A stretch of 64,000 nucleotides of DNA from Nitrososphaeria archaeon (GCA_029775925.1 JARVKB010000004.1:3925-67924), one strand, 5' to 3'. Positions 5,730-52,718 are shown, counted from the first letter of the stretch. Numbers and translations are program-made. Notes: generated by a model not told the origin, from the sequence alone.

Positions 5730-5751
5730 CAAGTGCAAAAATATTTTTGCA
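5730..5751. promoter_or_regulatory. putative operator containing palindrome TGCAAAAATATTTTTGCA (copy 1)
   Basis: 22 bp identical to 52694-52715; lies upstream of a TTTAAAAA box (5774) of the corrinoid gene. Confidence 0.7.
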
Positions 5752-5809
5752 TCAAGGAAGAATAGAAGAAAAATTTAAAAAAAACAACGTTATTTATAAT
5801 CGAAAACAA

Positions 5810-6469
5810 ATGTCCCAGGAAGAAATTTTAGCCGAACTTGCTAAAGCAGTGATAGACGGTGACGTGGACAAGGCAAAGTATTTGGCACATAAAGTATTGG
5901 AGTTAAAAATAGATCCTTATAAAGCTATCATGGATGGATGCGCTGCAGGAATGAGGATAGTGGGGGAAAAATATCAAAATGGCGAAATGTTCATTCCTGA
6001 GTTACTATATTCAGCTGAAGCGATGTATGCTGCAACAGACGTCTTAAGCCCTCACATAAAAGCAGAAAAAATTCCATATAGCGGTAAGGTAGTAATAGGT
6101 GTTGTTGAGGGCGATATACATGATATTGGCAAGAACATCTTGGTAACACTTTTAAAGGCAAGTGGGTTTGAAGTTGTAGACTTAGGCAGAGATGTGCCGA
6201 CAAAAGATTTTGTGCAAAAAGCAAAGGATGAAAAAGCAGAAATCATAGCCATGTCAACTTTGATGACCACAACAGCTCCAGGAATGAAAAAGGTCATAGA
6301 TGTATTGTATGAGGAGGGTATAAGAGATAAGGTAAAGACTATTATTGGAGGAGCAGCCGTTTCAAAAGAATTTGCTAAGGCTATAGGTGCAGATGCTTAT
6401 GGAGAAGAGGTAGTCGACGGCGTAGAGATGGTCAAAAATCTTATGAGTTCTATTAAGAGAGGGGGATGA
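5810..6469 (+). CDS. methyltransferase corrinoid protein (MtbC/MttC-like)
   Basis: DIHDIG B12-binding motif, STLMTTT, IIGGA; ATG at 5810 preferred over the TTG inside the palindrome. Confidence 0.93.
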   Translation: MSQEEILAELAKAVIDGDVDKAKYLAHKVLELKIDPYKAIMDGCAAGMRIVGEKYQNGEMFIPELLYSAEAMYAATDVLSPHIKAEKIPYSGKVVIGVVEGDIHDIGKNILVTLLKASGFEVVDLGRDVPTKDFVQKAKDEKAEIIAMSTLMTTTAPGMKKVIDVLYEEGIRDKVKTIIGGAAVSKEFAKAIGADAYGEEVVDGVEMVKNLMSSIKRGG

Positions 6470-7533
6470 AAAGTTTGGTAAAACCAATTGAAAGAGTTGT
6501 AGCTGCCTTAACATATAAGGATCCGGATAGGGTTCCTGCTGCACCATTAGTTTGTGGAGCATCAAGAAGAGTTTATGGAGTTACATACGATGTTTGGTCT
6601 AGGGACCCTGTTATTGCTGCCAAATCTCTTATTGCTGCACAAGAGTTGATAGGTTTTGATGGTTTCTTGACATTAGTGGACTTGAGCGTAGAGCCCGCTG
6701 CCTTCGGTCAAAAAGTCTTATATCCTGTCGAAAGTACTGCTTTATCCGCAGCTTTCAAAGGTGATATGTTAATAAAGAGCGTAGACGATTACGATAAACT
6801 CGAATATGTAGACCCTAAAAAAGCTGACAGGATGAGAGATGTGATAAAAATCTGTGAGATACTTGTTCAAGCGAAAGGAAAAGAAGTTCCAACTTTGGGA
6901 TTTGTATACGGTCCTGCCGGAACCCTATCTATGATGAGAACTTTAGAGAAGCTTAGTTTAGACCTAGTGAAAAATAAGTCAGCAGTTCTTAAAGGGCTGA
7001 AAATCGTAAATGATGTGCTATTTGATTACGCAAAAGCTCAGTGTGAAACAGGAGTTCCAGGGGTCGTTCTAGACGTTCTTTACGCATCAAAAATGATATG
7101 GAGTAGAAAGACATACGATGAGTTTGAAGGTCAGTTATGTTCAAAAATCGCTGATGAAATAAGAAAGCATAATGCTCTTGTAGTACTTCATAACTGTGGC
7201 CATGGGCCCTTCTTTGACACGATGATAAGCTGGTATAAGCCTGCCGCAATATCGTTCCACTATGTTCCTGATGATTGCAAAGACTATGCTGACACAAAGG
7301 AGAAGTATGGGAAAAAGACTGTACTGATAGGTCAAGCTGACAATCCTAAAGTAATCTACCCAGGTACTCCTGAAGAAGTTATGAACCATTGTGCGGAACA
7401 AATTAAAGTATATGGTCCCGGTAGTGGTTTCATACTTGCCACAGGTTGTGAATTTCCACCTAACGCTTCATTACTGAACGCTAGAGCAATGATAGAGGCT
7501 GCTGAGAAGTATGGTAAGTATCCAATGGCTTAA
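6466..7533 (+). CDS. MtaA/CmuA-like methylcobamide methyltransferase (UROD superfamily)
   Basis: PDRVP, DLSVE, Zn ligands LHNCG and TGCE; ATGA coupling to the corrinoid gene. Confidence 0.88.
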   Translation: MKSLVKPIERVVAALTYKDPDRVPAAPLVCGASRRVYGVTYDVWSRDPVIAAKSLIAAQELIGFDGFLTLVDLSVEPAAFGQKVLYPVESTALSAAFKGDMLIKSVDDYDKLEYVDPKKADRMRDVIKICEILVQAKGKEVPTLGFVYGPAGTLSMMRTLEKLSLDLVKNKSAVLKGLKIVNDVLFDYAKAQCETGVPGVVLDVLYASKMIWSRKTYDEFEGQLCSKIADEIRKHNALVVLHNCGHGPFFDTMISWYKPAAISFHYVPDDCKDYADTKEKYGKKTVLIGQADNPKVIYPGTPEEVMNHCAEQIKVYGPGSGFILATGCEFPPNASLLNARAMIEAAEKYGKYPMA

Positions 7534-8051
7534 CCATTGGGTACTTCATTTTTCTTTTTTTGAATTATCAATCGAATCAAAGATGGATTTATTCCTTCTA
7601 ACCATTCATTAGGTGCTTTTTCAACACTCGAGAGTGGGGCAAGCTTCACTATTCTTTGTTTTGCTCCAAGTTTGATGAGCTCTACAACAAGAAATAAGAA
7701 AATCTTTCCATTCATTATGCCTATGTCCATGGCATACGTTCTGAAACCTTCTTTTATACGATACCTTCTTGCCGTTATTCTGGCTAGAAATCTTGCTTCA
7801 AGCTTAGAGTAAAGTGAAGGACTTACAGTAGGAGGGAGTTTACTTGGAACTTCTCTTAGTTCATCTATTCTTTTTTCAAGTTCTAATAACATCTTCCGAA
7901 TCTCTTCAGGGTTTTGCCTATTTTCTAATCTAAATCCTTCTATAGTGATATTCTCGTACTGTGATTCTTCTATCAAGGGATAAATTTCTATAGCTGAAGG
8001 GTAGTCCTGACAAAAAATGATATGTATTTCTTCATCCTTTGTTTCTGACAT
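7530..8051 (-). CDS. hypothetical protein
   Basis: 173-aa ORF, last gene of the minus-strand run. Confidence 0.7.
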   Translation of the reverse strand: MSETKDEEIHIIFCQDYPSAIEIYPLIEESQYENITIEGFRLENRQNPEEIRKMLLELEKRIDELREVPSKLPPTVSPSLYSKLEARFLARITARRYRIKEGFRTYAMDIGIMNGKIFLFLVVELIKLGAKQRIVKLAPLSSVEKAPNEWLEGINPSLIRLIIQKKKNEVPNG

Positions 8052-8082
8052 GAAACATCATCTTAAAATATGAATTAAATTA

Positions 8083-8574
8083 TTACTCATTCTTTTTTCG
8101 TTCCTCTTCCTTTGGTTGTATTGGAATGTCGAACTTATCAAAATACTCATGCTCTTTCTCAATTTCTATATTAAAACCATAATTCAACAATACTTCATTC
8201 GAAGCCTCAAGAGTCGCCATCTTGACTTGAGATTTGTCTATTCCCTGTACTATGCTATTTATAACAAGGTACGCTTGAGTTATAGGCTCTGTTATGCTAC
8301 TTTCAACATAAACTCCTTTTTCTAAGCCTATCGTATCTGCTTTTAGGTACCCGTGTTTGGTCTTCATATAGGATTTTATATGACCGATGAATTTTGCACC
8401 TTTCTCAATACAATAGGAAGCTATTCTTAACATTAACTTATTACCCATCTCTTTGATAGCATCTATATTGATAGGCTCTGATCGAGTAAGCCTAAAAGCA
8501 ACAGCGTAGCCACTTACGCCAAAGGGCTCATAGCATGCTTTAGTTGAACTGCTTTCAACCTTTTCTGAACTCAT
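8083..8574 (-). CDS. CobW-associated ferredoxin-like fold protein
   Basis: IGHIKS motif typical of proteins next to CobW-type GTPases. Confidence 0.6.
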   Translation of the reverse strand: MSSEKVESSSTKACYEPFGVSGYAVAFRLTRSEPINIDAIKEMGNKLMLRIASYCIEKGAKFIGHIKSYMKTKHGYLKADTIGLEKGVYVESSITEPITQAYLVINSIVQGIDKSQVKMATLEASNEVLLNYGFNIEIEKEHEYFDKFDIPIQPKEEERKKNE

Positions 8575-8588
8575 GAATTAATCACCTT

Positions 8589-9224
8589 TTATCTTATCTG
8601 ATAAGCTGGATATTCTACAGGCTCTGTAATAAGCTTCGCCAATTCTACCATACCGTCTCCTCTAATAGAGGATATTCTCATGATTTTTGCTTTCTGGTTT
8701 ATCTTTTTAACTTCCTGCTCACAATCAACTAACTGCTCCTCATTTACAACATCGATCTTACTTATGGCTATAATATCTGCATCAGAGATTTGCCTGATCA
8801 CTATGTTTCCTAATATGTCATTGAAGAGCAGCTCTTCCGGTCTTGTCGCATCGAATAAAACAACAGCCGGTCCCAAATTTATGTCACAATCTCTTTTTGC
8901 CATAAGGGCGGCCAACTTAACTTGATTTGGTATAGCTACTCCTGTCGGCTCTACTAAAATAAAGTCAGGTTTAAAGGTTTGAGATAGTAAAATGAGTGTA
9001 TTAGTAAAGCTTGTGGCTATCTCACAACAAATGCAACCTCCACCTAAGTCTTTAACTCTTAACCCATACTCTTCTACAACCTTGCCATCTACAGGAATCT
9101 CTCCAATTTCGTTTACAACCAGAGCAACTCTCTTTTTAAAATCACCACTTAAAGTTCTAGCCAAGGATATTATGGCTGATGTTTTTCCAGAACCAAGAAA
9201 GCCTGCTATCTGAATTATTCTCAT
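8589..9224 (-). CDS. CobW/HypB/UreG-family metallochaperone GTPase
   Basis: GFLGSGKT, VNEIG, GGCICC, EPTG, SKID. Confidence 0.92.
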   Translation of the reverse strand: MRIIQIAGFLGSGKTSAIISLARTLSGDFKKRVALVVNEIGEIPVDGKVVEEYGLRVKDLGGGCICCEIATSFTNTLILLSQTFKPDFILVEPTGVAIPNQVKLAALMAKRDCDINLGPAVVLFDATRPEELLFNDILGNIVIRQISDADIIAISKIDVVNEEQLVDCEQEVKKINQKAKIMRISSIRGDGMVELAKLITEPVEYPAYQIR

Positions 9225-9249
9225 AACTAGGATAAAGAGTATTTCCCTC

Positions 9250-11199
9250 TTATATTTTTCTTATAACTGGTCGTCCAATGGCTGATACTTTTATTTCTGA
9301 CCAAACGAAACCTACTTTTGGGAATATTCCATCTCTCCTATCTATCTTAATCTTTAAGTCCTCTGCACCAGATCTTTTAGCTAACTTTGTAGCTTCTTCT
9401 GTCCCCATCTTTATTGCAAAGTTTATGGCTTCTTCTATGGTTCCAAAAATATATCTTCCTGGGAATACCACATACCTATCAGGTTTTACCTCTTTTGCTA
9501 TGTACATCTCAAAAGAACCTATCACACTCCCAACAAGGGAACCTACAGCTGCTCCAACTTCATGATGTTCAGGTATGATTGCTAAAGTTCCAAGCCTTCT
9601 AGCCACTTCTGGTAAAAATAGGTAGACTGGTGCACCTATGCCTATCAATGGTATATCCAGCTTTGCTAGAACTCGAAAATCTCCATCATTATTTCCATCA
9701 GAAATCTTTCTTATTATTTCAGAGCATGCTATACATTTTTGATTTAAATCCCATTTATTTAGCTTTAACATCATCTTTTCAAATATTCTCGATACCAACT
9801 TTTCTACAATCAATTGCCATATCTTTTTTTGAAGCTCGTCAAGCGTCATTCCATTCTTTCTGGCGAAAAGGTCGGCACCCAGGATAGCAGCATCAACGTC
9901 TCCTGCAGTATAAATCCCCTTTGCATGCATGATATCTGTTGGAGTTAAGCCTATCCCAATTATGTACCCTCTCTCCATCAGGAACGAAATCAACAAATCA
10001 GCGATGGGGAAATCTGTCATATTATTGCTTATCTCAAGAAGGGTTGTTGGCTCCAGCTCTTGAACCGTCTTTAGAAACTTTTCAGACAATCCGCCTATGT
10101 TTTCGGCTTTCCGAGGTGCCTGACTGACGGTAATAAAATCTGTAGTCTTGTATTGTTCCATCTTCTTTAGTAAATTAGGAAATATTGATGCAGCAAATGC
10201 AAGAGGTATAACTCTTTGTGGACCTAAATCGATACCTTTTTCAGGATCTATATGTATCCATCCATCTCCTCCTATTCCCCAAGCATCAGCATCTACTGCC
10301 TTTACTCTTGTCTTCCAGCCTGCAATACGAACTCCGTCCTCAACCACGTGAGGGGCATTCCCTTTGGAAGTTGTTATTATCGATGTTGTACTTCCCATGT
10401 CTATTACTACGGCATCTTCTTTGCCAGCTAGGAATAGCCCACCAAGTACACTTGCTGCAGGTCCTGACTGAATTCCTTCTATCGGTCTTTCTAAAGCAAC
10501 TTCTTCATTCATAAGAGAACCGTCACCTTTTACTATCATTAAGGGTACATTCAAGCCCTTCTGATCTAATGCATCTCTTATTTCTCTTATGAGATTTTGG
10601 ACTATAGGAATTAGCCTTGCGTTAAGGACCGCTGTAACAGTCCTCTCATAAATTCCGAGCTCTGTTGCAAGTTCATATCCACAAGTGACTGGTTTTCCAG
10701 TCTTTTTCTTTATCCATTCTTTGACAGTCAATTCATGCATCGGATTTCTTACGCTAAAGTATCCTGATACTGCAAAGGAGTCAACATTTTTATTCATATT
10801 TTCAATGGTTAAGATGACTTCATCTATATCTAACTGTGCTTGTTCAACACCGTCAGGTCCATGGCCTCCTTTAACAGTCATGATTGTTGCTGCAGGTATG
10901 TCCCAAGTTTTCTCAGGTTCAAATCCAATTAAAATCAAGCCGACCTTTGCACCTTTTCCTTCAATGACAGCATTTGTGGCAAGAGTTGAAGCAAGAGAAA
11001 CCAAAACAATTTCATTCGCAGGAATACCGCTGATCGATAAAACCTTATTTATCGATTCAATGATTCCAACAGATAAATCATAATGCGTTGTCCTTGATTT
11101 TGTCTTTGCAACTATTTTCTTATCGTCCATTCTCATAATTACTGCATCTGTATGAGATCCGCCCGTGCTTACACCTATCCCAAACAATAATCTCACCAT
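9250..11199 (-). CDS. hydantoinase/oxoprolinase (HyuA-like, ASKHA) family protein
   Basis: GGSHTD, STLATNA, ERTVTAVLNA, SGPAAS, DMGSTT, TPTD. Confidence 0.9.
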   Translation of the reverse strand: MVRLLFGIGVSTGGSHTDAVIMRMDDKKIVAKTKSRTTHYDLSVGIIESINKVLSISGIPANEIVLVSLASTLATNAVIEGKGAKVGLILIGFEPEKTWDIPAATIMTVKGGHGPDGVEQAQLDIDEVILTIENMNKNVDSFAVSGYFSVRNPMHELTVKEWIKKKTGKPVTCGYELATELGIYERTVTAVLNARLIPIVQNLIREIRDALDQKGLNVPLMIVKGDGSLMNEEVALERPIEGIQSGPAASVLGGLFLAGKEDAVVIDMGSTTSIITTSKGNAPHVVEDGVRIAGWKTRVKAVDADAWGIGGDGWIHIDPEKGIDLGPQRVIPLAFAASIFPNLLKKMEQYKTTDFITVSQAPRKAENIGGLSEKFLKTVQELEPTTLLEISNNMTDFPIADLLISFLMERGYIIGIGLTPTDIMHAKGIYTAGDVDAAILGADLFARKNGMTLDELQKKIWQLIVEKLVSRIFEKMMLKLNKWDLNQKCIACSEIIRKISDGNNDGDFRVLAKLDIPLIGIGAPVYLFLPEVARRLGTLAIIPEHHEVGAAVGSLVGSVIGSFEMYIAKEVKPDRYVVFPGRYIFGTIEEAINFAIKMGTEEATKLAKRSGAEDLKIKIDRRDGIFPKVGFVWSEIKVSAIGRPVIRKI

Positions 11200-11684
11200 A
11201 TTTACAATAATCTATTCTAAACCTTGTTTTTGCTCTTTATCTAATTTTAATTTTCGTCTAAACTTTTGGTTAATGTTAAATCCTGTATCTATAAGTTTTG
11301 TTACCTGATTAGTGGCTTCGACCAACTGTCTTTTTAAGATTGTTCGATTGTTTATAACAGTTGGAAAGCAATAGGAGATGCGTAATAAGTTATAAGAAGG
11401 CATCCAATGTTGCATTTCCTTCATTTCACCGCCATTATTCGGTGATTTACGTTTGGATAACAATTATGAGTTTGCCAATTTTGCCATCTTCTCATATTCA
11501 CTAAGAGTATCATCTCCATCTGCTTTAACTAAAAATAGTCTTTTAACCTTTTTTTATAAAGATTTACTAGTGAAAAGATAAATTAGACTTTTACTCGAAG
11601 TTAAATTAAGCATAAAAATTAAGTGCAAATTTTTTGAAGCAAATATCAAAAGGGTTAATTTATTGCTATTAAAAGAACGAGCCG

Positions 11685-12392
11685 ATGATATTTACAAATC
11701 GTGAAGAACTCATAGAATTTTTAAAAGGATCGCCATTGGGTAGAATTATCTCCATAGAGCCTGATGATTGCCAATGGATGCTGGAGAGATCAACCTTAAA
11801 TGTAATTTTGAGCAAGGACAATTTTATCAAAACATTGTTTATTGGTAATATATTAGATTCTTATTTAAAAGAAGGTTCAGTTATTTATATCGACTTTGAT
11901 ACCATCTTCTCAGCATTTTTAAATCTGATTATTAAAGATACTAAATATTTGGATAATCTGCTAATTTTAAAGCCTAGCGATGGAGATAGTGAGAATATTA
12001 TGGCTTATGCCTGCTCTCTTTTTTCACCTTATATAAAGCTCATAGTTCTTGACTCAATAACAACTCTTTATTACCTTCTTAACAGTAGGGCATCTTCAGA
12101 TGTCAATAGGAAGATAGGGGTTTATCTGAGCTTATTAGAGGGCTTGGCCAATAAACTCAATATACCTATTATAGTTACAAGCATGATAAGAGCAAAGAAA
12201 TTTAAGCAAACTGAATCTTGGCTCGCTTCTCCAACAGGTGGTAGAGTTTTGTTGAGATCGAATATAGTTTTAAAATTGGATAAAATCTTTGAGCATATAG
12301 AGATCAACGTGATAAAGCATAAAAACGATGCATTTATCGGTAAAACCTTCAAAATTCCTATAATATTAAGTTGGAGTGATAATATTGGTTAA
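11685..12392 (+). CDS. degenerate RecA/RadB-like protein
   Basis: VIYID, LIVLDSI (Walker B), PTGGR; no canonical Walker A. Confidence 0.65.
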   Translation: MIFTNREELIEFLKGSPLGRIISIEPDDCQWMLERSTLNVILSKDNFIKTLFIGNILDSYLKEGSVIYIDFDTIFSAFLNLIIKDTKYLDNLLILKPSDGDSENIMAYACSLFSPYIKLIVLDSITTLYYLLNSRASSDVNRKIGVYLSLLEGLANKLNIPIIVTSMIRAKKFKQTESWLASPTGGRVLLRSNIVLKLDKIFEHIEINVIKHKNDAFIGKTFKIPIILSWSDNIG

Positions 12393-13185
12393 TACTAAAA
12401 AGATTGAATATATACCCATTCGCGTTGACATTAAGAAGGAAAGGTTCAATTTATTCCAGACGATTTTAAGTGAAGTGGAAAAGAATGGTGAAAGAATAGA
12501 AGATGGGGACGTATTGGTAATATCAAGTAAGTTCGTAGCCATGTCAGAGGGTAGAATAGTGAAATTATCGGATGTAATTCCAAGCCCTGAAGCTGAAGAT
12601 TTAGCATCAAAGATACATGTGCCAAGCAAACTTGCTGAACTAATATTAAGAGAAGCCGACTTAGTCTTTGCTGGTTTGCCTGGTTTCGCTCTAACGATAA
12701 AGGATGGTGTTTTTACTCCTAACGCTGGAATAGATCGATCTAATGTGCAAGAAGGTTGGGCGATACTTTACCCAAGAGAACCCTTTAAAAAAGCTGAAAT
12801 GCTAAGAAGAAGAATACTGTTAGAGACTGGTAAAAAAGTTGGGATAATAATAACGGATAGTAGGTTGTTGCCGTTAAGATCTGGTACTACTGGAATCGCT
12901 ATAGGCGTGGCTGGCTTTGATCCAGTTAAAGATGAGAGAGGAAGGAAAGATCTTTTCAACAACATATTAAGAGTTACTTTGCGTGCCATAGCTGATGATA
13001 TAAGTGCAGGAGCTCAATTATTAATGGGCGAAGCTGATGAAGGAACGCCAATTGTCATAGTCAGAAATAGTGGCATAAAATTGCACGATAAGCCAATAGA
13101 TTATGAACAGATGGTTGTCAATCATCATGAGTGCATTTACGTGCGAGGTTTATCTCATAAAAATATCTCTTTAATAAAAAATTAA
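12376..13185 (+). CDS. cofE: coenzyme F420-0:L-glutamate ligase
   Basis: SKFVAMSEG, NAGIDRSN, IITDS, GRKDLF, MGEADEGTP. Confidence 0.88.
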   Translation: MIILVNTKKIEYIPIRVDIKKERFNLFQTILSEVEKNGERIEDGDVLVISSKFVAMSEGRIVKLSDVIPSPEAEDLASKIHVPSKLAELILREADLVFAGLPGFALTIKDGVFTPNAGIDRSNVQEGWAILYPREPFKKAEMLRRRILLETGKKVGIIITDSRLLPLRSGTTGIAIGVAGFDPVKDERGRKDLFNNILRVTLRAIADDISAGAQLLMGEADEGTPIVIVRNSGIKLHDKPIDYEQMVVNHHECIYVRGLSHKNISLIKN

Positions 13186-13258
13186 AAGATAATTGTGTTT
13201 AAGGTTAAAGGAATACAACCGAATTACTTTTATCCAAGCCTTTTTCATTTGTTATGAA

Positions 13259-13435: not shown

Positions 13436-13483
13436 TAAATAAAGTGGAAATTCGTTCAAAACTCATAATTAGTAAGTGGTTTT

Positions 13484-35480: not shown

Positions 35481-35585
35481 GGGCCTGTGGCTCAGCCAGG
35501 TAGAGAGTCATCCTATAACGGCTGGCTCTTAACCAGACAGAGTAAATGGGTTAATAGGTCGTGGGTTCAAATCCCACCAGGCCCG
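35481..35585 (+). tRNA. tRNA-Lys(CTT) with two non-canonical introns (35506-35518, 35537-35554)
   Basis: Cloverleaf after removing 13 and 18 nt; anticodon CTT at 35528-35530; BHB-type junctions. Confidence 0.92.
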
Positions 35586-45301: not shown

Positions 45302-45937
45302 CTATTTACTTTTTGATGAAAGCCTCTTAGAAAGCTTCTCCATGGACCTTATTATCTTAGATCTTCTTACCTCTTCAGTAACTGCAGATCTAGTATCTTC
45401 TATCAGTATTCTTGCTACATCCAACTTCCTTCTTATGCCTTGAGCTAAGTGATCATAAACTGCAAAAGGTAGTAAAAGAATATATAAGCGCTCCATTATG
45501 CTGAAGAGTGAAAAAGCTTCTTCGCTTTTTCCTCTTCTTATCTCATCATATGTGCGTCTTTTTAACTCTCCTATCGTATCCAATAAACCGAGAAGATAAG
45601 ATACATTTGTTACTTCAAGCTCTTTATGTGATGGTATTGATTTCTTCATTGCTATTGAGTAAAGAACAGATGCTTCAACGTACTCTACTTCAGGTGCTAT
45701 AAGATATTTTTGTAAATCATCGGTAACAACTTTTCTCAATTCTGCTAGAATACTTTTAGCAGAATTGAGTTTAGAAATTGCTTCATTAAAGTTCGTTAAG
45801 TGAATGTTAGTTATCGCTTTAGCAGATAGAGATATAACATCTCTAGATTCACGTAGTATCCTCTCACGTTTTTTCTCGATTTCATCTAATTCTTTCGATA
45901 TTTCTAAAAGAGATTCTTCAACTTGTTCTATACCCAT
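45302..45937 (-). CDS. translin family protein
   Basis: EYVEA, YLLGLLDTIGELKR, RRKLD. Confidence 0.9.
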   Translation of the reverse strand: MGIEQVEESLLEISKELDEIEKKRERILRESRDVISLSAKAITNIHLTNFNEAISKLNSAKSILAELRKVVTDDLQKYLIAPEVEYVEASVLYSIAMKKSIPSHKELEVTNVSYLLGLLDTIGELKRRTYDEIRRGKSEEAFSLFSIMERLYILLLPFAVYDHLAQGIRRKLDVARILIEDTRSAVTEEVRRSKIIRSMEKLSKRLSSKSK

Positions 45938-45990
45938 AGAAGAATCTTATACCAAGTGAATAAAATAGATTTTGTTGTTAAAGAAGTATA

Positions 45991-47574
45991 TTAATGAGCT
46001 ATAGTCTGGCTTTGCTCTCTTAGAAATTGTTGTAGATAATAAGGTCCTCCTGCTCCTTTTCCACTAGATCCGCTAAGTTTCCATCCTACAAAAGGCTGTG
46101 CTCCTACCATTGCTCCTGTTGTAGCCCCTATTTTTCTATTAGCATATATTACTCCTGCTTGAATTTCATCAAAGAATTTCTTTATCTCTTTCTCATCTTC
46201 ACTAAATATACCAGCTGTTAAGCCATAGTCTACATTATTAGATAGATTTATTGCTTCATCAAGAGAATCGACTTCAGCAATGCAAAGTATTGGCACAAAA
46301 AGCTCATCTTTAAAGAATTTATGATCTTTTGGAAGTTCATCAACTATAGTAGGCTCAACAAAATAACCATATTTGTGCTTTTCATCAGTTAAAATCCTTC
46401 CACCAGTTAAAACTTTACCATCTTTCTTTGCTATCTCTATATAATCCTGATAATTCTTATAGGCCCTTTGATTAATCAACGGGCTTATGAAGCTATCTTT
46501 TAATGTTGGATCATCTATTACTAGCTCTTTTGTCCTCTTTACAAGCTTTTCTAAAAAATCTTTCTTTACCCTTTTATCTACATAAACACGAGAACAAGCA
46601 CTACATTTTTGACCACTATAACCAAAAGCTGCTCTTACTACTCCTTCTACAGCTTTATTTAGATCTGCTTTAGATGTAACTATAACTGGGTTCTTACCAC
46701 CCATCTCAGCTATAAAGGGTCTTGGACGTTTTTCATTAAAAATTCTATATGATTTTACACCTACGTCCTTAGACCCTGTAAAGACTATTCCTTGTACATC
46801 ATCATTATTCACTAATTCAGCTCCTACAATATCCCCTGAACCAGTCACATAATTGAATACTCCTTTTGGTAATCCTGCTTCATTAAGAATCTCGTAAATC
46901 TTAAATCCAGTCAGAGGAGTATCACTAGAAGGCTTAAAAACAACGGTATTGCCTGTAATTAATGCTCCTGAACTCATGCCTATTGCTATAGCGAAAGGAA
47001 AGTTGAAGGGAGAGATTACTCCCCAGACCCCATAAGGCTTCATAACGCTCTTTGTTTCCTCATTAGGGAATGCTTTTCCCATTTTTTTCTCATATCCTTT
47101 ATTTGCTTCCATCTCCTCACAATAGTATCTCATTAAATCTATTCCTTCATCTACATCTGCTATTGCTTCAAATCTATTCTTTCCATTTTCTAAAGTTATT
47201 ATTGCAGCTAATTCATATTTCTTTTGAGAAGATATATCTGCAGCCTTTCTAAATATCTTCGTTCTCTCATAATATGGTATTGAACTCCAAAGTTTGAAGG
47301 CTTTCTTCGCTGCCTCTACAGCCTTCTTTACATCATCCTTTGTTCCTTTTTGAAAGTATCCTATAACTATTCTTGTATCAGATGGACTCGTCTTGATAAA
47401 TTCTCCTTCTTTAGAGTAAACTTCTTTTCCATTTATTATATTTGGGTATTTTTTCCCAAGTTCCTTCTTAACTTTTTCTAAGGCTTCTTCATAATTTTTA
47501 TGAAATTCTTCAGCCTTACCAGAATTTAAGGCTTTAAACCATGTTAGCTCATTCTCAAAGACCATTCTAATCAC
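45991..47574 (-). CDS. 1-pyrroline-5-carboxylate dehydrogenase-like ALDH
   Basis: FENE, PFNFP, EMGGKN, GQKCSACS, GAQPF.GWK.SG. Confidence 0.88.
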   Translation of the reverse strand: MIRMVFENELTWFKALNSGKAEEFHKNYEEALEKVKKELGKKYPNIINGKEVYSKEGEFIKTSPSDTRIVIGYFQKGTKDDVKKAVEAAKKAFKLWSSIPYYERTKIFRKAADISSQKKYELAAIITLENGKNRFEAIADVDEGIDLMRYYCEEMEANKGYEKKMGKAFPNEETKSVMKPYGVWGVISPFNFPFAIAIGMSSGALITGNTVVFKPSSDTPLTGFKIYEILNEAGLPKGVFNYVTGSGDIVGAELVNNDDVQGIVFTGSKDVGVKSYRIFNEKRPRPFIAEMGGKNPVIVTSKADLNKAVEGVVRAAFGYSGQKCSACSRVYVDKRVKKDFLEKLVKRTKELVIDDPTLKDSFISPLINQRAYKNYQDYIEIAKKDGKVLTGGRILTDEKHKYGYFVEPTIVDELPKDHKFFKDELFVPILCIAEVDSLDEAINLSNNVDYGLTAGIFSEDEKEIKKFFDEIQAGVIYANRKIGATTGAMVGAQPFVGWKLSGSSGKGAGGPYYLQQFLREQSQTIAH

Positions 47575-48390
47575 TCACGCCTTACTTAATTCCTTTGCCC
47601 TTTCTGTTGCTTTTATTACAGCATCTATAATTGTTGCTCTAACTCTTCCTCTCTCCATTTCTAACAATCCCTCTATCGTAGTTCCTCCTGGTGTTACAAC
47701 CATGTCCTTAAGCTTTGCGGGATGTTCATTAATTTCCAAAACCATCTTTCCTGCTCCTAAAATAGTTTGAGCGCTAAGGGTTATAGCAATATCTCTGGGC
47801 AAACCTAGTCTAACACCTGCATCGCTTAGCGCCTCAATTATTAAATATATGTAAGCTGGTCCGCTTCCAACCAAGCCAGTTACTGCATCAAAGTATTTTT
47901 CATCAAGAATTATCGTTCTTCCCAAAATGCTAAGTACTTCTTTTACAGCTTCTAACTTCTCTTTTGGCGTATTGTCTGATGGACAAATGGCGATCATACC
48001 TTCTCTTACAAAGCATGCAATGTTGGGCATAACTCTTATAATAGGAATTCCTTCTGGCAGATTTTTTCTTATAAAATCTAATTTAATCCCTGCAGCAATG
48101 CTAACAAGTATTTTTTCAGGGGTTATATTATCTCTTATACTCTCAAGGACATCTTTCACATTATGAGGTTTAACAGATATTATTATCAAATCGCTACGCT
48201 CTACCAATTTTTTTGTATCATCAAAGCTTTCAATATGGTAATTATCAGTAATGTATTTACGGCGCTTTTCTATTATCTCTGATGCGTAAACGTCTTGTGG
48301 AGAAAATATCTTTGATTTAAGGAAACCTGAAATCAAGGCTTCTCCCATATTTCCTGCTCCAATAATGCCTATTTTCTTAATTTTGTTCAA
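47575..48390 (-). CDS. proC: pyrroline-5-carboxylate reductase
   Basis: GAGNMG, RVMPN, GSGPAY, TPGGTT. Confidence 0.96.
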   Translation of the reverse strand: MNKIKKIGIIGAGNMGEALISGFLKSKIFSPQDVYASEIIEKRRKYITDNYHIESFDDTKKLVERSDLIIISVKPHNVKDVLESIRDNITPEKILVSIAAGIKLDFIRKNLPEGIPIIRVMPNIACFVREGMIAICPSDNTPKEKLEAVKEVLSILGRTIILDEKYFDAVTGLVGSGPAYIYLIIEALSDAGVRLGLPRDIAITLSAQTILGAGKMVLEINEHPAKLKDMVVTPGGTTIEGLLEMERGRVRATIIDAVIKATERAKELSKA

Positions 48391-48822
48391 AGTCTGTCGC
48401 CTACATCAATAGGCAACTTAAAAGTTTTTCTAAGTATTAAAACTTTAATTAATGATTGTCAAATTTTGATTTCCCTTAACATAAATGAAAAAGAAGATTG
48501 TCCGCCAAATTTAACTAAAGAAGTTAAAACCCAATGTAAGTGAGAACGGAAATCTGGAAGTTAAACTTCAAAAGACGACTCAATCAAAATAGAATAAAAA
48601 TTTCTTTTTAGTTCATTTTTTCTATGTGCTTTTTGCTCTCAAGATTTAGAAGGAATTTATGATTTTCTGCTTTTTCGTCAAGTTTCGAAGCAGACATTGC
48701 TACCAGATGAACTATTGGCCAAAATTTTATTTAAATTTAATTTAAGCCTTGTTAAATATGGATTTCTTGGCACATAACACTTTGAATCTTCATCCTAAAA
48801 AGGAATCATTCGATAATTTAGT

Positions 48823-50202
48823 TTAATTTATATTAGTCTTTGAGAAAGTTTTTTCCCTGTAAAGAGATTTTCCATCTATGCTTGTAATATTGAAAAGGCA
48901 GAACGGTATGAGTTTCTTGTCAGGCGTAACAACATGTATGCAGCATTCTTGAACTCTTTCTAATTCAACGTTCCATACGTCTTGGAAGGCCATCGTTGAA
49001 ACTGTTAAGTAATTTTCTGACATCCTTTTTATTAAATCCATCCAAGTCCCTGGCTCACACCCACATAATAAGTTATCTCCTAAACCCAACTGTTCCATAA
49101 TAGATTCTTCTGGGAACTTCCAAAGATCTTTAATAGCATCACGAGTCTTCTTTGATATATCTTCTACTTCACACGATGGGCAGGAAAGATTGCTAGTAAG
49201 TGGTAAAAGCTTACCATTCTCTAAAACGACAGAGTAGCTTCTAGCATCACAATGCACGTTAGGGCAAGAAGTAGGAGTAAAGTTCTCAACTTTTAGCTCT
49301 CCCCTTGTTTGGGCCTCTATAGCTTTTAGGATATCAGGTATGGTCACTCTATCGTTATTATTTGGTAGAGAAGGGTATCTGCCAAAATAACTTAGAGGTT
49401 GAAAATGAACACCGTTTACCGTTGGAACCCATTTTTTAGCAAAATTTATTATATCACCTATTTGATCATAATTGACTCCTTTTTCAATCACAGGTACGAG
49501 TACTACACCTATCTCTAACTTTGAACAGTTTTCAAGAGCTTTAAGTTTAACATCAAGAAGGTCTAAACCACACCTTTTTTCATATACGTCCTTAGTTAAG
49601 CCATCAAAAGAGAAATAAAGTGCATCCACACCTTTCTCTTTCAATTCTTTAAAATAATCAAAATCTTTACTCAATCTTATGGCATTTGTGTTCAACTCTA
49701 TATAATCTATGCCCATTTCCTTTCCCATAGCAACTATTTCTGGGAGATCATCTCTCACTGTGGGTTCGCCACCGCTTATTTGAACACATATGGGTTTAGG
49801 ACAGTTTTTTAATAATGTCTCATACATTCCTTCAATAGTTTGGATGTCTGGATGATAATTGTATGATTTAGCACTTGCAAAGCAATAGGGGCAATTTAAA
49901 TTACATCTATTTGTAATTTCTAAGACTGCAACACAAGTTCTTTGTTTATGAGCAGGGCACAGTCCACAATCGTTTGGGCATCCATTCTTAGAGTCAGTGA
50001 TTGTCTGATCTGGTTTCTTCTTTTTGACGTTAAACTTAAAGCGGTCTATATAAGAGGTTACCCCTCTCCAAATGATCGTTTTAAAAGATCCGTGATCTGG
50101 GCAAGATTTTTCAAGAAAAACATCATCCTTCTCAACAACTTTTCTAGCAGGAATCTTTCTTAAACATTTTGGACAGAGACTTTCAGTCTCACCTATTAGC
50201 AT
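48823..50202 (-). CDS. TrsS-like radical SAM protein (Tes/MJ0619-related architecture)
   Basis: CPKC..CPDHG, CPNDCGLC, CNLNCPYC, QPLSYFGRY, AFQD.WN..ER..ECCIH, IPFC. Confidence 0.85.
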   Translation of the reverse strand: MLIGETESLCPKCLRKIPARKVVEKDDVFLEKSCPDHGSFKTIIWRGVTSYIDRFKFNVKKKKPDQTITDSKNGCPNDCGLCPAHKQRTCVAVLEITNRCNLNCPYCFASAKSYNYHPDIQTIEGMYETLLKNCPKPICVQISGGEPTVRDDLPEIVAMGKEMGIDYIELNTNAIRLSKDFDYFKELKEKGVDALYFSFDGLTKDVYEKRCGLDLLDVKLKALENCSKLEIGVVLVPVIEKGVNYDQIGDIINFAKKWVPTVNGVHFQPLSYFGRYPSLPNNNDRVTIPDILKAIEAQTRGELKVENFTPTSCPNVHCDARSYSVVLENGKLLPLTSNLSCPSCEVEDISKKTRDAIKDLWKFPEESIMEQLGLGDNLLCGCEPGTWMDLIKRMSENYLTVSTMAFQDVWNVELERVQECCIHVVTPDKKLIPFCLFNITSIDGKSLYREKTFSKTNIN

Positions 50203-50247
50203 ATTAACAATAAATGCATGAAATCTTAAATACTTTTTTAGATCTAT

Positions 50248-50625
50248 TTATCTAAATGGATTTTCTCCAACATCATTATAATATTCTAATAGTACTTTAT
50301 TAGCCCTTCTAGATACTCTCCTTTTTTCAAATTTTGAATAAACGATACGAAGTGTTCTAAGATCCCATTCTGTATCGCATTTCGGACATCTAGCAAGCTC
50401 ACAACCTCTGACACTACCTGGGCAGCCTTGGCAACTTATGGCTCTGGCCCATAAAAGGCTAAATTCAGCGTTGCATTCTGGGCATCTTACTAATTTGGCA
50501 GTCTTCCAAACCATGCCGGTAGGGTCGATCTGGTTTAAGCAAGTAGGAGTCTCGTAGAAGGATCTATGAACGTTAAAATCTTTCCTTCTTTCTTCATACA
50601 ATTTCCTTAATTGTGAAGTTTTCAT
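50248..50625 (-). CDS. Cys-rich metal-binding protein
   Basis: CPEC...CQGC...C...CPKC. Confidence 0.8.
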   Translation of the reverse strand: MKTSQLRKLYEERRKDFNVHRSFYETPTCLNQIDPTGMVWKTAKLVRCPECNAEFSLLWARAISCQGCPGSVRGCELARCPKCDTEWDLRTLRIVYSKFEKRRVSRRANKVLLEYYNDVGENPFR

Positions 50626-50686
50626 AATCGATCAATATTGATAATAAAGATATTTAAAGCTATCTAAAAAAATAAAAGGTGGTGCC

Positions 50687-51172
50687 TTATGCCCTCTTCT
50701 TTTCGAAGAGCATTTCAGCCACAGCAACTGGCTTTGCCGCTATGTCTTCTTCAATATAACTTTCTTGACATTTAGGGCAGGTAAGAGTTGGGGCCATTCT
50801 AACGATGCCCATGTATTCTAGATCGAACTGTCCTCGGACTGTTTGGACATCGTCCTTGGCACACCACCAGTCCTTTACTTCTTCTGGGACTGTATAGACT
50901 AAGTTCTTCATACGCATCTTATGGCTATAGACCTTCTTGATTACATATGCTGTGACTGGGTGGGTTCCGGGAGCTGCTGGAGCATACATTACATATAGGG
51001 TTATATTATCCATGATCTTTTTTGCTAAATTTTCTCCAGTGACTTTATTGATGAGCTTTGCCTTCTTCTCTTCAGCTTCATAAACTAATTTTTTGCACAT
51101 ATCAGCAGAGATGCCCTTTTGGGCTAGGGCATTCTCAATCTCTTTTGGAACCAAAACATCTATCATTACCAT
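50687..51172 (-). CDS. DVU_1557-like redox protein with N-terminal YSH(K/R)M domain
   Basis: VYSHKM; WWCAKD...YMG...CPKC...IEED.A...AE. Confidence 0.7.
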   Translation of the reverse strand: MVMIDVLVPKEIENALAQKGISADMCKKLVYEAEEKKAKLINKVTGENLAKKIMDNITLYVMYAPAAPGTHPVTAYVIKKVYSHKMRMKNLVYTVPEEVKDWWCAKDDVQTVRGQFDLEYMGIVRMAPTLTCPKCQESYIEEDIAAKPVAVAEMLFEKKRA

Positions 51173-51175
51173 TTT

Positions 51176-52339
51176 TCACCACGTCCCATACGTTCCATAA
51201 TCCTTACACGCTTTTACCGCTGCTAATGTACAGCCAGGATTTGTAATCAAAGGAGTCTCACAAGTAGTTCCCAATATACATCCTCTAGGCGAATCCCTTG
51301 CTTTGAGGAGTTGACTCTTGCTTTGTTCGTATATGAAAGAGAAGTTCGGTTCTATCATCCTCTTCCCATCTACCGTTGTGAGTAGAGTCATCCTATTGCC
51401 AAATTCCTTCTTTAATAGATCCCCTGGGAATACATCATCACCATAGTATCCTATGTGTATAACTGTGAAAGGCGTGGTAATAACATCTCTCCACATCGGG
51501 TAATCTCTTGAATGATCTCCACAAAGATGATACCATAATTGAGGGCCACCACCACCTGCAAGCGCCCTTCTTACAAAGTCTCTTTGATGATCGAAGGAGA
51601 ATTCCTTTACGTACTTCGGTGGTAAGACTGTGGAGTTGGCTAAAACACTACCTATTACCATCATGTCAAACCCATATCTATCAGCTGTAAGAGATGCCCC
51701 ATTCGCACTAGTGTAAGCAAGGGCATCAAGAATCTTATGGCAAGCCTTAGGTTCTTTTCTAGTCCATATGATGAACTTCTCAGGACCTACTAACTCAGCA
51801 GCCATTGAGAATAAGCAGAATACATTATGCATAGGTAACATCATGTCAGGTATGTTGGCTTTTTCATAATCAAAAGCTCTCCAATGAAGCTCGGTTGTCT
51901 TGCATTTATCTGGCGTCAAATCTTCTTTCTCAAACTTCTGTATTTTATCAGCATCTTCAGGATTCTTTATCGGTCTATCTCCTACAACGATCCATGGAAG
52001 TGTATTGGTTGTTTGTAGCTTAACCCCGTACTTCTCCAAGAATACGTTAGAATAGAAGAAGTGGGCGACTGGTAAAAGATCAAACAGCTCATTAAAATAT
52101 GCTACACAATGAACAGCAATCTCGGGATACTCATAGAAATCTCTGTTAGTGAAACCTAGCAAAGTGGTTGCGTGTGCCATGACTATAGGATCGAAATCTA
52201 TTCTATCTTTGAATACATCAACGAAAGGAGATGCAAAACGTGTAACAGACCCTGTGTGCCATTTTTTATGTGATTCAGTATCATGTGAGATGAAGTGAGA
52301 TGGTAGTTTATCAATTGGAACAGTAGGTTGGTAGCTCAT
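51176..52339 (-). CDS. divergent MtaA/UROD-family methyltransferase
   Basis: Zn ligands YHLCG and TTCETP, ELVGPE; start MSYQ at 52339, about 30 nt from TTATATAA. Confidence 0.82.
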   Translation of the reverse strand: MSYQPTVPIDKLPSHFISHDTESHKKWHTGSVTRFASPFVDVFKDRIDFDPIVMAHATTLLGFTNRDFYEYPEIAVHCVAYFNELFDLLPVAHFFYSNVFLEKYGVKLQTTNTLPWIVVGDRPIKNPEDADKIQKFEKEDLTPDKCKTTELHWRAFDYEKANIPDMMLPMHNVFCLFSMAAELVGPEKFIIWTRKEPKACHKILDALAYTSANGASLTADRYGFDMMVIGSVLANSTVLPPKYVKEFSFDHQRDFVRRALAGGGGPQLWYHLCGDHSRDYPMWRDVITTPFTVIHIGYYGDDVFPGDLLKKEFGNRMTLLTTVDGKRMIEPNFSFIYEQSKSQLLKARDSPRGCILGTTCETPLITNPGCTLAAVKACKDYGTYGTW

Positions 52340-52402
52340 ATTCTTTCGGAAAAGAAATATCGACTCCCTTATATAAGAATTTTGAATTAACATCGTTATA
52401 TT

Positions 52403-52675
52403 CTAAATCGCTTCTTTTAACTTCTTCTTTGCATAAAAGTAGGTCCTTCTACTTATCAACCCATTCCGAAAGTCATCTTCAAGAAGACTTATGGCCAGAG
52501 TAGTCCCTCTTAATTCAAGATATTTTTGGATTTTGCTCTTTCTTCCAATCTTAGCGTCTAACTTTTGTATAATATTTAATACAGGCTCTCTCTCGATAAC
52601 AGCAAGATTGTAAACTCTTTCAAGAATAGCAGTGAAAGCCTTCTCCCCAAGTTTCTCCAATAGTCTTCGAAACAT
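52403..52675 (-). CDS. small basic protein, candidate DNA-binding regulator
   Basis: C-terminal GLISRRTYFYAKKKL resembles an HTH recognition helix; ATG 52675. Confidence 0.5.
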   Translation of the reverse strand: MFRRLLEKLGEKAFTAILERVYNLAVIEREPVLNIIQKLDAKIGRKSKIQKYLELRGTTLAISLLEDDFRNGLISRRTYFYAKKKLKEAI

Positions 52676-52694
52676 ATATTCTAATTTTCTTTCC

Positions 52695-52718
52695 AAGTGC
52701 AAAAATATTTTTGCACTT
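52695..52718. promoter_or_regulatory. perfect 24-bp palindrome AAGTGCAAAAATATTTTTGCACTT (operator copy 2)
   Basis: Read directly; shares 22 bp with 5730-5751. Confidence 0.75.

Follow-up and report, generated by a model that had tools for sequence, protein, structure and literature searches.

Archaeal regulators with a dual function, for example those of the TrmB family and of the SurR type, repress from a site downstream of the TATA box and activate from one upstream of BRE/TATA. Another group, the Msr proteins, is marked by the FilR1_middle domain (formerly DUF1724). In Methanosarcina acetivorans the Msr family regulates methanol and methyl-sulfide methyltransferase genes (PMC3419521, in the part drawn on here). 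Type 1 mlp clusters contain several URO-D homologues alongside a corrinoid protein and an activase of the Ram/RACE type, and the part of the Kountz and Balskus preprint that we use proposes them for methyl-sulfur or methyl-selenide metabolism (PMC10418091). The TrsS radical SAM (seleno)protein family (NCBIfam NF045646) was named in Haft and Tolstoy 2025, as given in the portion of PMC13188914 used here, and a link between TrsS and a corrinoid protein may already be in print.

We discuss here a window of 64,000 nucleotides, the whole stretch of DNA analysed, from a Nitrososphaeria archaeon whose genome (G000) comprises 1,401,784 bases in 34 contigs. The host is an uncultured hot-spring archaeon without McrA, and its relatives are labelled Nitrososphaerales.

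Two methyltransferase operons in the window share a palindrome, which is probably the operator of one dimeric transcription factor that would jointly control three dispersed corrinoid-methyltransferase loci. A clade-restricted set of three operator sites is a credible reading, with transcription starts, binding and sign of regulation deduced from sequence.

Three copies of a palindrome

The first-pass annotation had reported that a 22-mer, CAAGTGCAAAAATATTTTTGCA, is shared by the two operons, and it is indeed present in exact form at 5730-5751 and 52694-52715. With up to 3 mismatches allowed the sole extra match in the window is copy 2 read on the opposite strand, and 100 dinucleotide-preserving shuffles of the window gave 0 matches. 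The palindromes said to lie within it are also there. Both copies hold the perfect 18-bp palindrome TGCAAAAATATTTTTGCA, at 5734-5751 (site 1, where the left half-site reaches AAG at 5731) and at 52698-52715 (site 2, where the perfect palindrome is 24 bp, 52695-52718). Both sites have the dyad symmetry of a dimer operator, and the half-sites, of consensus AARTGCAAAAAT, are arranged head to head.

A genome-wide search for the 18-mer gives 2 sites with 0-1 mismatch, 3 when 2 mismatches are allowed and 4 when 3 are; no exact copy other than sites 1 and 2 is present in the 1.40 Mb, and a reversed-pattern control gave 0 over the whole genome. The pattern TGCAAAA-N(0-8)-TTTTGCA occurs 3 times. Site 3 (contig C21, 24700-24715) has the same half-sites as sites 1 and 2 with a centre 2 bp shorter, and lies where a gene for a PH0730-like winged-helix regulator and a RamA/URO-D operon converge, between their 3' ends. 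Weaker matches fall within ORFs or near unrelated genes. The motif is not scattered, as all 3 sites adjoin URO-D/MtaA-like genes, each being at most about 0.7 kb away from one of the genome's 7 URO-D genes. Such neighbourhoods make up about 1.5% of the genome, and by our arithmetic three independent chance matches would have a probability of about 3e-6. The URO-D proteins at the three sites are not close paralogues, and the sites are therefore not explained by a gene that was duplicated together with its flank.

A degenerate copy, AAGTGCAAATTTTTTG, had been proposed at 11621-11636 (plus strand), upstream of the hydantoinase/CobW operon, but this has to be withdrawn. It consists of a single half-site, AAGTGCAAA, a 9-mer with 29 occurrences genome-wide, where 17.6 would be expected, and thus at chance level, and a second half-site was not found at that locus. 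It falls outside the system, and the actual third site is site 3.

Site 1 is in the spacer from which a membrane-protein gene and the corrinoid operon diverge. It had been placed upstream of the TATA box, and it does end 22 nt before the TATA-like TTTAAAAA (5774-5781, plus strand) and 58 nt before the ATG at 5810. This putative TATA box is preceded by an A-rich stretch and centred about 32 nt before the ATG; the upstream profile of 343 genes genome-wide is A-rich at -36 to -32 and T-rich at -30 to -24. The operon encodes a corrinoid (B12-binding) protein of 219 aa (5810-6469, plus strand; Pfam B12-binding and B12-binding_2; 220.6 bits against NCBIfam pyl_corrinoid, cut-off 215.3) and, with a 4-nt overlap, MtaA1, an MtaA-like URO-D family methyltransferase of 355 aa (6466-7533, plus strand; Pfam URO-D E 1.3e-50). 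An in-frame extension of the corrinoid ORF to a TTG within the palindrome was rejected, as it is not conserved and meets stops there in the related genome G003.

Copy 2 had been described as directly before a small ORF, which fits well, the likely TTG start at 52696 being 1 nt past the palindrome. The sequence TTTAATTA (52722-52729, minus strand), 6 nt upstream of site 2 and centred 29.5 nt before the TTG, appears to be the TATA box of this operon. Its first gene encodes an all-helical basic protein of 97 aa and pI 9.9 (52403-52696, minus strand). The 21 nt from this TTG to a later ATG show only synonymous variation among relatives, and metagenome locus L159 has no ATG; database homologues of the protein are of 97 aa and form 7 clusters, all from this clade. 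The next gene encodes UROD2, a divergent URO-D-like protein (51176-52393, minus strand; Pfam URO-D 56.7 bits), the true start of which may be about 16 codons further in. UROD2 belongs to a rare family (16 clusters), and its motifs YHLCGDH and C378 are invariant across 17 homologues. There follow, all on the minus strand, a dicluster/DVU_1557-family redox protein (50687-51172; Pfam DUF7479 45.2 bits, and 30 bits against NCBIfam DVU_1557_fam, under the cut-off of 60), a small Zn-ribbon-like protein of 125 aa with weak zinc-ribbon matches only (50248-50625), and a radical SAM protein with an N-terminal HMPTM-type zinc ribbon (48823-50202; Pfam Radical_SAM and Zn_ribbon_HMPTM). This last belongs to the TrsS family, with 552.9 bits for rSAM_Se_TrsS against a curated equivalog cut-off of 490. 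It is a relative of tetraether synthase Tes, its second-best match at 399.1 bits, below the Tes cut-off of 450.

MtaA1 and UROD2 both score above the Pfam URO-D cut-off and have the H-x-C...C (His-Cys-Cys) zinc-ligand pattern, which together define the MtaA/CmuA class. All the URO-D proteins here are far under the MtaA/MtbA equivalog cut-offs. The zinc ligands are absent from the URO-D protein at site 3. That one zinc enzyme demethylates a substrate and the other methylates a thiol is a guess.

Conservation and linkage of the loci

When up to 1 mismatch is allowed, the 18-mer is present in 4 of the 9 further genomes of this family, which are exactly those with UROD2, and absent from the 51 genomes examined in the order's other families. 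As expected of an operator, the palindrome is kept at orthologous places. Site 2 precedes the small ORF in G001, G002, G003 and G005 and in metagenome loci L157, L158 and L159, and in all 8 sequences, that of G000 included, the TATA box is followed by 6 nt, the palindrome and the start codon. The sequence AAGTTTAATA is kept in all 7 relatives, and the DNA further upstream in G000 is unrelated to theirs, so that the site is conserved at orthologous promoters with diverged flanks. L157 has the variant TGCAAAAACGTTTTTGCA, a symmetric double change that preserves the DNA dyad. At site 1 such conservation is partial. Of 5 related genomes searched, 1 has an MtaA1 orthologue (84% identity), and the corrinoid/MtaA operon with its site is present only in G000 and in this relative, G003. 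The site there is CAAGTGCGAAAATAATTATGCAC, which keeps 15 of 18 bases (3 changed) at equal distances from TATA box and ATG, the counterpart TATA box being TTAAATAT, 23 nt past the site. With 3 sites only and about two genera, statistics across relatives are weak.

Outside the clade, at least 119 stretches of unrelated genomes, bacterial and archaeal, also contain the exact 18-mer. However 78 of 80 foreign loci with it carry none of the genes tested, and the association is thus specific to the clade and not that of a travelling element.

The two clusters had been suggested to belong to one pathway, and gene neighbourhoods elsewhere agree with a functional link. Other lineages have, in one cluster, a corrinoid protein, a URO-D-like gene, a DVU_1557-type redox protein and a TrsS radical SAM protein. 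Among metagenome loci with UROD2 the DVU_1557-type gene follows it in all 67 that have room, homologues of TrsS and of the Zn-ribbon-like protein are present in 66 and 48 of 80 respectively, and RamA in 6 of 80. A corrinoid gene adjoins the UROD2 homologue in 15 of the 80 (8 directly upstream on the same strand and 7 divergent), and the corrinoid protein of the window is sister, with support 91/92, to those encoded directly upstream of a UROD2 homologue.

Operator and rival explanations

If the palindrome is an operator, protein bound at site 2, which is flanked by the TATA box and the TTG of an operon with practically no leader (small protein, UROD2, then the DVU_1557-type redox, Zn-ribbon and TrsS radical SAM proteins), would block recruitment of RNA polymerase, and this is thus a position for repression or autorepression. 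The centre of site 1 is some 35 bp upstream of the corrinoid/MtaA1 TATA box, from where the same protein could activate; alternatively it might repress through a second weak TATA box beside the site. Given the repressor-like position of site 2, the two sites in the window probably differ in the sign or the mode of their action. At site 3 the bound protein might be a roadblock, or the site might double as a bidirectional terminator.

There are difficulties. Site 3 in G000 lacks 2 central bp, which a rigid dimer should not tolerate, and its hairpin with T runs at convergent 3' ends looks terminator-like. The centre of the palindrome, AAAAATATTTTT, is itself BRE/TATA-like, and site 1 is degenerate in the sole relative with the corrinoid/MtaA operon. 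The earlier suggestion that one regulator serves both loci stands in part: the sites are specific, conserved and at linked loci, but that at the corrinoid operon is found only here and, degenerate, in G003. RNA-library contigs end inside UROD2, short of the palindrome sites.

It is rather improbable that the palindrome is a structural element, that is a hairpin, bidirectional terminator or UTR RNA stability element, and its sharing incidental. This would suit site 3, which lies between convergent genes in G000, G001 and G003. In G000 it is a perfect 36-nt palindrome flanked by T5 on both strands, which folds at -17.0 and -17.5 kcal/mol (37 C; z-scores -6.2 and -7.2), and the loop of a hairpin could lose 2 central bp without harm. 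The outer arms differ, AAAAATAG... in G000 and CCCAAAG... in G001 and G003, with self-complementarity retained in both. However only site 3 has the 3' end, stable stem and T run of a terminator. Sites 1 and 2 are at promoters and not at 3' ends, site 1 being between divergent genes, where a terminator scan of 5100-5900 gave 0 sites. The site 1 hairpin is weak for a hot-spring organism (-6.8 kcal/mol at 37 C, with 5 of 200 shuffles folding equally well). The symmetric change in L157 falls in the would-be RNA loop, and there is no reason for a terminator to keep 18 identical bases at three loci and in more than one genus. In this genome long palindromes go with promoters: perfect ones with arms of 10 nt or more reach their highest density in divergent spacers (19 in 49.3 kb) and their lowest in convergent spacers (4 in 29.8 kb). 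The set is probably not a terminator.

Less probable again is a core promoter, a symmetric BRE-TATA-BRE that loads TBP/TFB either way and would drive strong or bidirectional transcription of these loci with no dedicated regulator. The centre AAAAATATTTTT does resemble the 343-gene upstream signature, and counted from the ATG at 52675 site 2 covers -40 to -23, exactly the window of that signature. But the small ORF probably starts at the TTG adjoining the palindrome, so a TATA box within the palindrome would initiate transcription inside the gene, and there is a separate conserved TATA box 6 nt upstream. In addition a promoter at site 3 would yield antisense RNA only, and the invariant GC-containing ends (TGCA) are no part of a TATA box.

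The view that the copies are mobile-element remnants or targets (MITE/REP-like, or a recombinase site), or that AT-rich DNA produced the repeat by chance, is very improbable: an IS607-like pair (serine recombinase and TnpB-like ORF) begins about 68 nt after site 3 in G002 and the wide foreign occurrence indicates that the 18-mer can arise by chance in AT-rich DNA, but there are only 3 copies in 1.40 Mb, with unrelated flanks and no terminal repeats or target duplications, occurrence at orthologous positions in several genomes, no additional site found among the 9 other genomes of the family, no match in the window shuffles, and almost no foreign locus with the genes tested.

Candidate regulators and comparison with known systems

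For the operator reading there are two candidates for the binding protein. Our first choice, with not quite an even chance, is the 97-aa basic protein whose gene directly follows site 2; it is a candidate autoregulator. It has no Pfam or NCBIfam match, and its model (pLDDT 76.5) has no PDB fold match at E <= 0.001, so that domain and fold searches found no recognisable DNA-binding domain or fold. A homodimer model scored 0.55 against 0.00 for the best control, a mark reached, when the method was calibrated, by 20 of 30 proteins with a solved one-chain pair and 1 of 23 with a solved single chain. At least 94% of contacts agree between runs, with partner pLDDT of at least 73, and in the model the interface comprises residues 3-50 and does not engage the basic C-terminal helices.

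The PH0730-like/DUF4443 protein beside site 3 is possible as the binder, if less likely. Its domains are PH0730-like_N and DUF4443, and its residues 27-200 match PDB 2p8t (E 2.6e-9). Orthologues are present in G004 and G006 (81% and 89% complete), in which no palindrome was found. A literature search on DUF4443 found no paper, and to our knowledge no operator has been described for this family and PH0730 has no assigned function. It is unlikely that the binder is something else.

With regard to known systems, the site 3 neighbour is like PH0730 of Pyrococcus horikoshii (PDB 2p8t) in having both domains. The palindromes are like TrmB/SurR-type operators in having a dyad of about 18-24 bp, with one copy between TATA box and start and one upstream of TATA, and in their few copies at functionally related operons, but the candidate binders are outside the TrmB, Lrp and SurR families and one site is at convergent 3' ends.

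The arrangement recalls Msr in that dedicated activators or repressors would serve corrinoid methyltransferase operons scattered over the genome, a feature of Msr in the part of PMC3419521 used here. However the motif is different, the host lacks McrA, and G000 has 0 matches to FilR1_middle (PF08350), for which the M. acetivorans control was matched, and thus no Msr-type regulator by this domain.

The TrsS-family protein resembles NF045646 members in scoring above the cut-off, but its gene is readable without selenocysteine.

The gene content is like that of Type 1 mlp clusters in its differing His-Cys-Cys URO-D homologues, corrinoid protein and RamA-type activase, with no obvious methyl acceptor enzyme and with neighbours that have selenium- or sulfur-flavoured family names. 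It differs from them in that the parts are split over three loci, and the likeness is one of components. It differs also from Type 1 mlp as described in the sections of PMC10418091 used here in that a TrsS radical SAM protein and a DVU_1557-type protein are present.

The repeated sequence and its distribution

A search of the window found the 22-mer CAAGTGCAAAAATATTTTTGCA in exact copies at 5730-5751 and 52694-52715, as the first-pass annotation had claimed, and none of 100 dinucleotide-preserving shuffles (0/100) gave a match. At up to 3 mismatches the sole extra match in the window is copy 2 in reverse-complement orientation. The core of the 22-mer is a perfect 18-bp palindrome, TGCAAAAATATTTTTGCA, and in copy 2 the perfect palindrome extends to 24 bp (52695-52718). 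We call the 18-bp cores site 1 (5734-5751), before an operon for a corrinoid protein and an MtaA-like methyltransferase, and site 2 (52698-52715), before a small ORF. The degenerate copy earlier proposed at 11621 does not hold up, being a single half-site at chance level.

The source genome has 1,401,784 bases in 34 contigs and is 96% complete; the window is C23:3925-67924. The number of genomic sites matching the 18-mer rises from 2 at 0-1 mismatch to 3, 4 and 42 when up to 2, 3 and 4 mismatches, respectively, are allowed. A search with variable spacing, TGCAAAA-N(0-8)-TTTTGCA, finds exactly 3 places. The third of these, site 3 (TGCAAAAATTTTTGCA, contig C21, 24700-24715), has the same half-sites minus the 2 central bp and sits within a 36-nt perfect palindrome. 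Weaker matches at C4:53739, C32:2390, C33:34808, C33:37728 and C23:141361 are inside ORFs or beside unrelated genes, and were set aside.

A search of 185,579 species genomes for the exact 18-mer gave at least 119 stretches, from all kinds of bacteria and unrelated genomes, and 78 of the 80 such loci that were fetched are without any query protein. The association of palindrome and genes is thus specific to this clade, and outside it the exact 18-mer is no more than what chance would produce in AT-rich DNA. With up to 1 mismatch allowed, 4 of the family's 9 other genomes carry the 18-mer, and all 51 genomes from elsewhere in the order lack it. The divergent URO-D-like protein of the site-2 operon, UROD2, is found in 5 of 121 genomes of the order, the source genome included, and the 4 relatives with the 18-mer are exactly those with UROD2.

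The palindrome had been put forward as a regulatory element, and it is conserved in relatives: G001, G002, G003 and G005 each have a copy ahead of the small ORF, matching the arrangement in the window, and G001, G002 and G003 have a second copy in the site-3 position, following a PH0730-like gene at its 3' end. Site 3 of a relative has 18-bp spacing, against 16 bp in the source genome. The corrinoid/MtaA operon has an orthologue in one of five related genomes, G003, where site 1 is CAAGTGCGAAAATAATTATGCAC with 15 of 18 core bases kept, the TATA-like box is 23 nt away (22 nt in the window) and the spacing to the ATG is the same. Site 2 is also present in three metagenome loci, L158 (TGCAAGAATATTTTTGCA), L159 (TGCAAAAACATTTTTGCA) and L157 (TGCAAAAACGTTTTTGCA). 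L157 carries two changes that bring the two central bases back to perfect DNA symmetry; in an RNA hairpin these bases would be in the loop. In G002 an IS607-like pair (MerR-HTH serine recombinase and TnpB-like ORF, L009 1010-2441) begins about 68 nt after the site-3 palindrome, in place of the URO-D/RamA side found in G001 and G003.

Predicted promoter geometry and the nature of the repeat

At site 2 a predicted TATA box, TTTAATTA, lies upstream of the palindrome, before the small ORF, and the alignment of relatives gives a conserved block consisting of AAGTTTAATA, 6 nt, the palindrome, C, and TTG GAA AGA AAG TTA GAG TAT ATG. Upstream of this block the DNA of the source genome is unrelated to that of its relatives. 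Over the 21 nt between TTG and ATG only synonymous differences occur, the ATG is TTC in L159, and database homologues of the small protein are 97 aa long, all of which argues that the start codon is the TTG at 52696, 1 nt past the palindrome. The TATA centre is 29.5 nt upstream of this TTG. A crude set of 343 genes with ATG starts and spacers of at least 80 nt gave an upstream profile for the source genome that is A-rich at -36 to -32 and T-rich at -30 to -24, a pattern characteristic of transcripts with no leader or a short one. Site 2 would then occupy the gap between TATA box and start, and a protein bound there would exclude RNA polymerase.

Site 1 is centred some 35 bp ahead of the middle of a TATA-like TTTAAAAA (5774-5781), which puts it upstream of the core promoter. 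In the source genome, and not in G003, site 1 is preceded by a weak TATA-like GTATTAAT (5722-5729). An N-terminal extension of the corrinoid gene, in frame from a TTG inside site 1, was considered and rejected, as it is not conserved in G003. The same divergent spacer, unusually long at 5188-5809, has a 30-bp perfect palindrome, TTTATTATAGGAATTAATTCCTATAATAAA, at 5242-5271, some 55 nt ahead of the start (5187, minus strand) of a gene for a multi-pass membrane protein; this palindrome may be another operator. Its segment 5560-5720 aligns partly with the 3' end of a G003 gene that is intact there and upstream of the corrinoid gene, and in the source genome resembles what is left of a decayed gene.

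The source genome has 84 perfect palindromes whose arms are at least 10 nt long: 36 fall inside genes, 23 between tandem genes, 19 between divergent genes and 4 between convergent genes, with 2 more at contig edges. Per kb of spacer there are 0.39 between divergent genes and 0.13 between convergent ones, and palindromes in this genome go with promoters. Long ones are common, with arms of up to 21 nt (for example C4:14401, C20:23695 and C17:128767), and each differs in sequence, as expected for many local operators.

The repeat is real, specific and conserved, and it is best read, with some reserve, as the operator of a clade-restricted regulon that joins three corrinoid-methyltransferase loci. 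A mobile repeat is improbable: there are just 3 copies, shared flanks and terminal repeats are absent, and the IS607-like element beside site 3 in G002 is a single case. A transcription terminator fits poorly, as only site 3 is located at 3' ends, a terminator scan of 5100-5900 gave no site, and the hairpin at site 1 has little stability (-6.8 kcal/mol at 37 C, with 5 of 200 shuffles folding equally well).

Genes at the three sites and the UROD2 module

The corrinoid protein after site 1 (219 aa, 5810-6469, its ATG 58 nt after the site) is followed by the MtaA-like URO-D methyltransferase, MtaA1 (6466-7533), which overlaps it by 4 nt. The site-2 operon is of five genes on the minus strand, for the small protein (52696-52403, of no known family), UROD2, a dicluster protein with a DUF7479/DVU_1557-type domain, a Zn-ribbon protein and a radical SAM protein. 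The last scores 552.9 bits for NCBIfam TrsS (cut-off 490); the runner-up, tetraether synthase Tes, reaches 399.1 bits where 450 is required. Site 3 is in a 51-nt spacer between two convergent genes, one for a PH0730-like protein (217 aa; C21:24040-24693; PH0730-like_N winged helix and DUF4443; PDB 2p8t at E 2.6e-9) and the other for a third URO-D-like protein, preceded by a RamA/RACo-type corrinoid activase gene. The site-3 island also has mtaB, mtaC, mtaA and another corrinoid gene, and a class-V aminotransferase/SepSecS-like gene (C21:27616-28848; L013 10617-11849) adjoins its RamA-type activase.

No McrA domain was found in the 96%-complete source genome, which has MtaB (634.9 bits), several corrinoid proteins, a RamA-type activase and 7 URO-D genes. 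Each of the three sites adjoins one of the 7, and the three proteins are not close paralogues (BLASTP, best E-values 2.2 and 1e-05), so that duplication of a gene with its flank does not explain the shared sequence. The H-x-C...C zinc pattern is present in MtaA1 and UROD2 and absent from the URO-D protein at site 3; Kountz and Balskus (PMC10418091) give His-Cys-Cys as the mark of S- or Se-methyltransferases in the URO-D superfamily.

The UROD2 family is rare, with 16 clusters among 5.8 billion proteins. We compared the neighbourhoods of 80 metagenome loci (L157-L236) with UROD2 relatives at 42-95% identity. A DVU_1557-type gene follows UROD2 in 74 of the 80, and in all 67 of those with at least 600 nt of room. 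Of the 80 loci, 66 have a TrsS homologue, 65 have both dicluster and radical SAM genes, and 48 have the Zn-ribbon gene, with gene order in the module varying. The four-gene module (URO-D-like, DVU_1557-type dicluster, Zn ribbon, TrsS) is widespread. A corrinoid gene adjoins UROD2 at 15 loci. At 8 of these it is on the same strand and less than 200 nt upstream, the place held by the small ORF in this clade, and at the other 7 it is on the opposite strand, 6 of them also having a RamA homologue. Other neighbours among the 80 are mtaA-like genes (5), the small ORF (3) and a PH0730-like gene (1). At L167, with a UROD2 homologue of 61% identity, a different palindrome, TTGGATAAGTTATCCAA (3915-3931), lies upstream of the gene's TATA-like box; there is an MtrH-like gene upstream and the small ORF is absent.

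A maximum-likelihood tree built from 18 corrinoid proteins places the window protein and its G003 orthologue as sister to the 7 co-operonic proteins (support 91/92); the proteins from the site-3 island fall with the divergent, RamA-linked ones, where the tree is unresolved. Judged by these neighbourhoods, the palindrome-bearing parts of the source genome are one cluster in other lineages. This clustering and the corrinoid tree give independent support to the suggestion in the first-pass annotation that the loci work together.

The TrsS family was reportedly named by Haft and Tolstoy in 2025, and the link of its module to corrinoid proteins may or may not already be described by them. Literature searches found nothing for DVU_1557 and, among the matches listed for TrsS, unrelated acronyms only. 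The SepSecS-like gene and the selenium-flavoured family names (TrsS, DVU_1557 and the DUF2284 protein at 52875-53444) hint at sulfur or selenium chemistry; the DUF2284 protein itself scores 94 bits against MbdU, far below the cut-off of 600.

Window DNA is present in hot-spring metagenome runs, and database sources label proteins of the relatives "Nitrososphaerales archaeon". Hot-spring TACK archaea with MtaB and corrinoid proteins and no Mcr are described as Brockarchaeota in PMC8065059. In two metatranscriptome libraries there are contigs, 99% identical, over UROD2 and the gene that follows it (X4, 50776-52298, word depth 124.5; X5, 50970-52063), although neither starts nor levels can be read from such contigs and such libraries can include DNA. 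In the one 8-kb stretch compared, none of them reaches the small ORF or the palindrome. Elsewhere in the window, 35481-35585 (105 nt) matches Rfam tRNA at 41.2 bits and ARAGORN finds no tRNA; it is probably an intron-containing archaeal tRNA.

Candidate binders and the wider reading

Two proteins are candidates for binding the proposed three-site operator. The small protein is basic (pI 9.94, 22 K+R and 13 D+E), is confined to this clade and occurs there wherever the palindrome occurs. It has no Pfam or NCBIfam match even at E up to 10, matches only unnamed clusters at 0.90 in the protein atlas, and in a fold search of PDB gave 54 matches with none at E up to 0.001 and no known DNA-binding domain or fold. 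Its model is all-helical, of moderate confidence (pLDDT 76.5, pTM 0.46). The homodimer model scores 0.55 against 0.00 for the best control, a mark reached in calibration by 20 of 30 proteins solved as one-chain pairs and by 1 of 23 single chains, with contact agreement between runs of at least 94% and partner pLDDT of at least 73. The modelling supports pairing as a homodimer, with a predicted interface of residues 3-50 that leaves the basic C-terminal helices free. The second candidate, the PH0730-like protein, has a recognised winged helix, and site 3 is at the 3' end of its gene. It has orthologues in G004 (81% complete) and G006 (89% complete), in which the palindrome was not found.

A larger reading, which we put forward as a doubtful one, is that the 97-aa proteins are a new family of small dimeric DNA-binding proteins of no known fold that autoregulates its own operon and couples the corrinoid/MtaA and RamA/URO-D loci through the palindrome, forming with TrsS a split and previously uncharacterised pathway. 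Corrinoid methyl transfer would then feed, or be fed by, the Tes-like radical SAM enzyme TrsS, the substrates plausibly being methylated sulfur, selenium or metalloid compounds and the hosts thermophilic archaea with methyltransferases and without methyl-coenzyme M reductase.

To our knowledge nothing is known of the control of methanogen-type methyltransferase genes in Mcr-less archaea, and an operator with three sites and two concrete candidate binders is directly testable. The regulon is small and confined to one small clade, and its general importance is therefore limited. The widespread UROD2 module and its corrinoid link are a by-product of more interest than the operator: the shared site and the neighbourhoods of the 80 loci tie the corrinoid protein and RamA activase to an uncharacterised module of UROD2, DVU_1557-type redox, Zn-ribbon and TrsS proteins, which thereby becomes a defined biochemical target.

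With regard to known systems, the source genome differs from those with the Msr-type regulators treated in PMC3419521 in that it has no regulator of that type (FilR1_middle). The proposed operator set would itself be a known type of system, here in a clade-restricted form.
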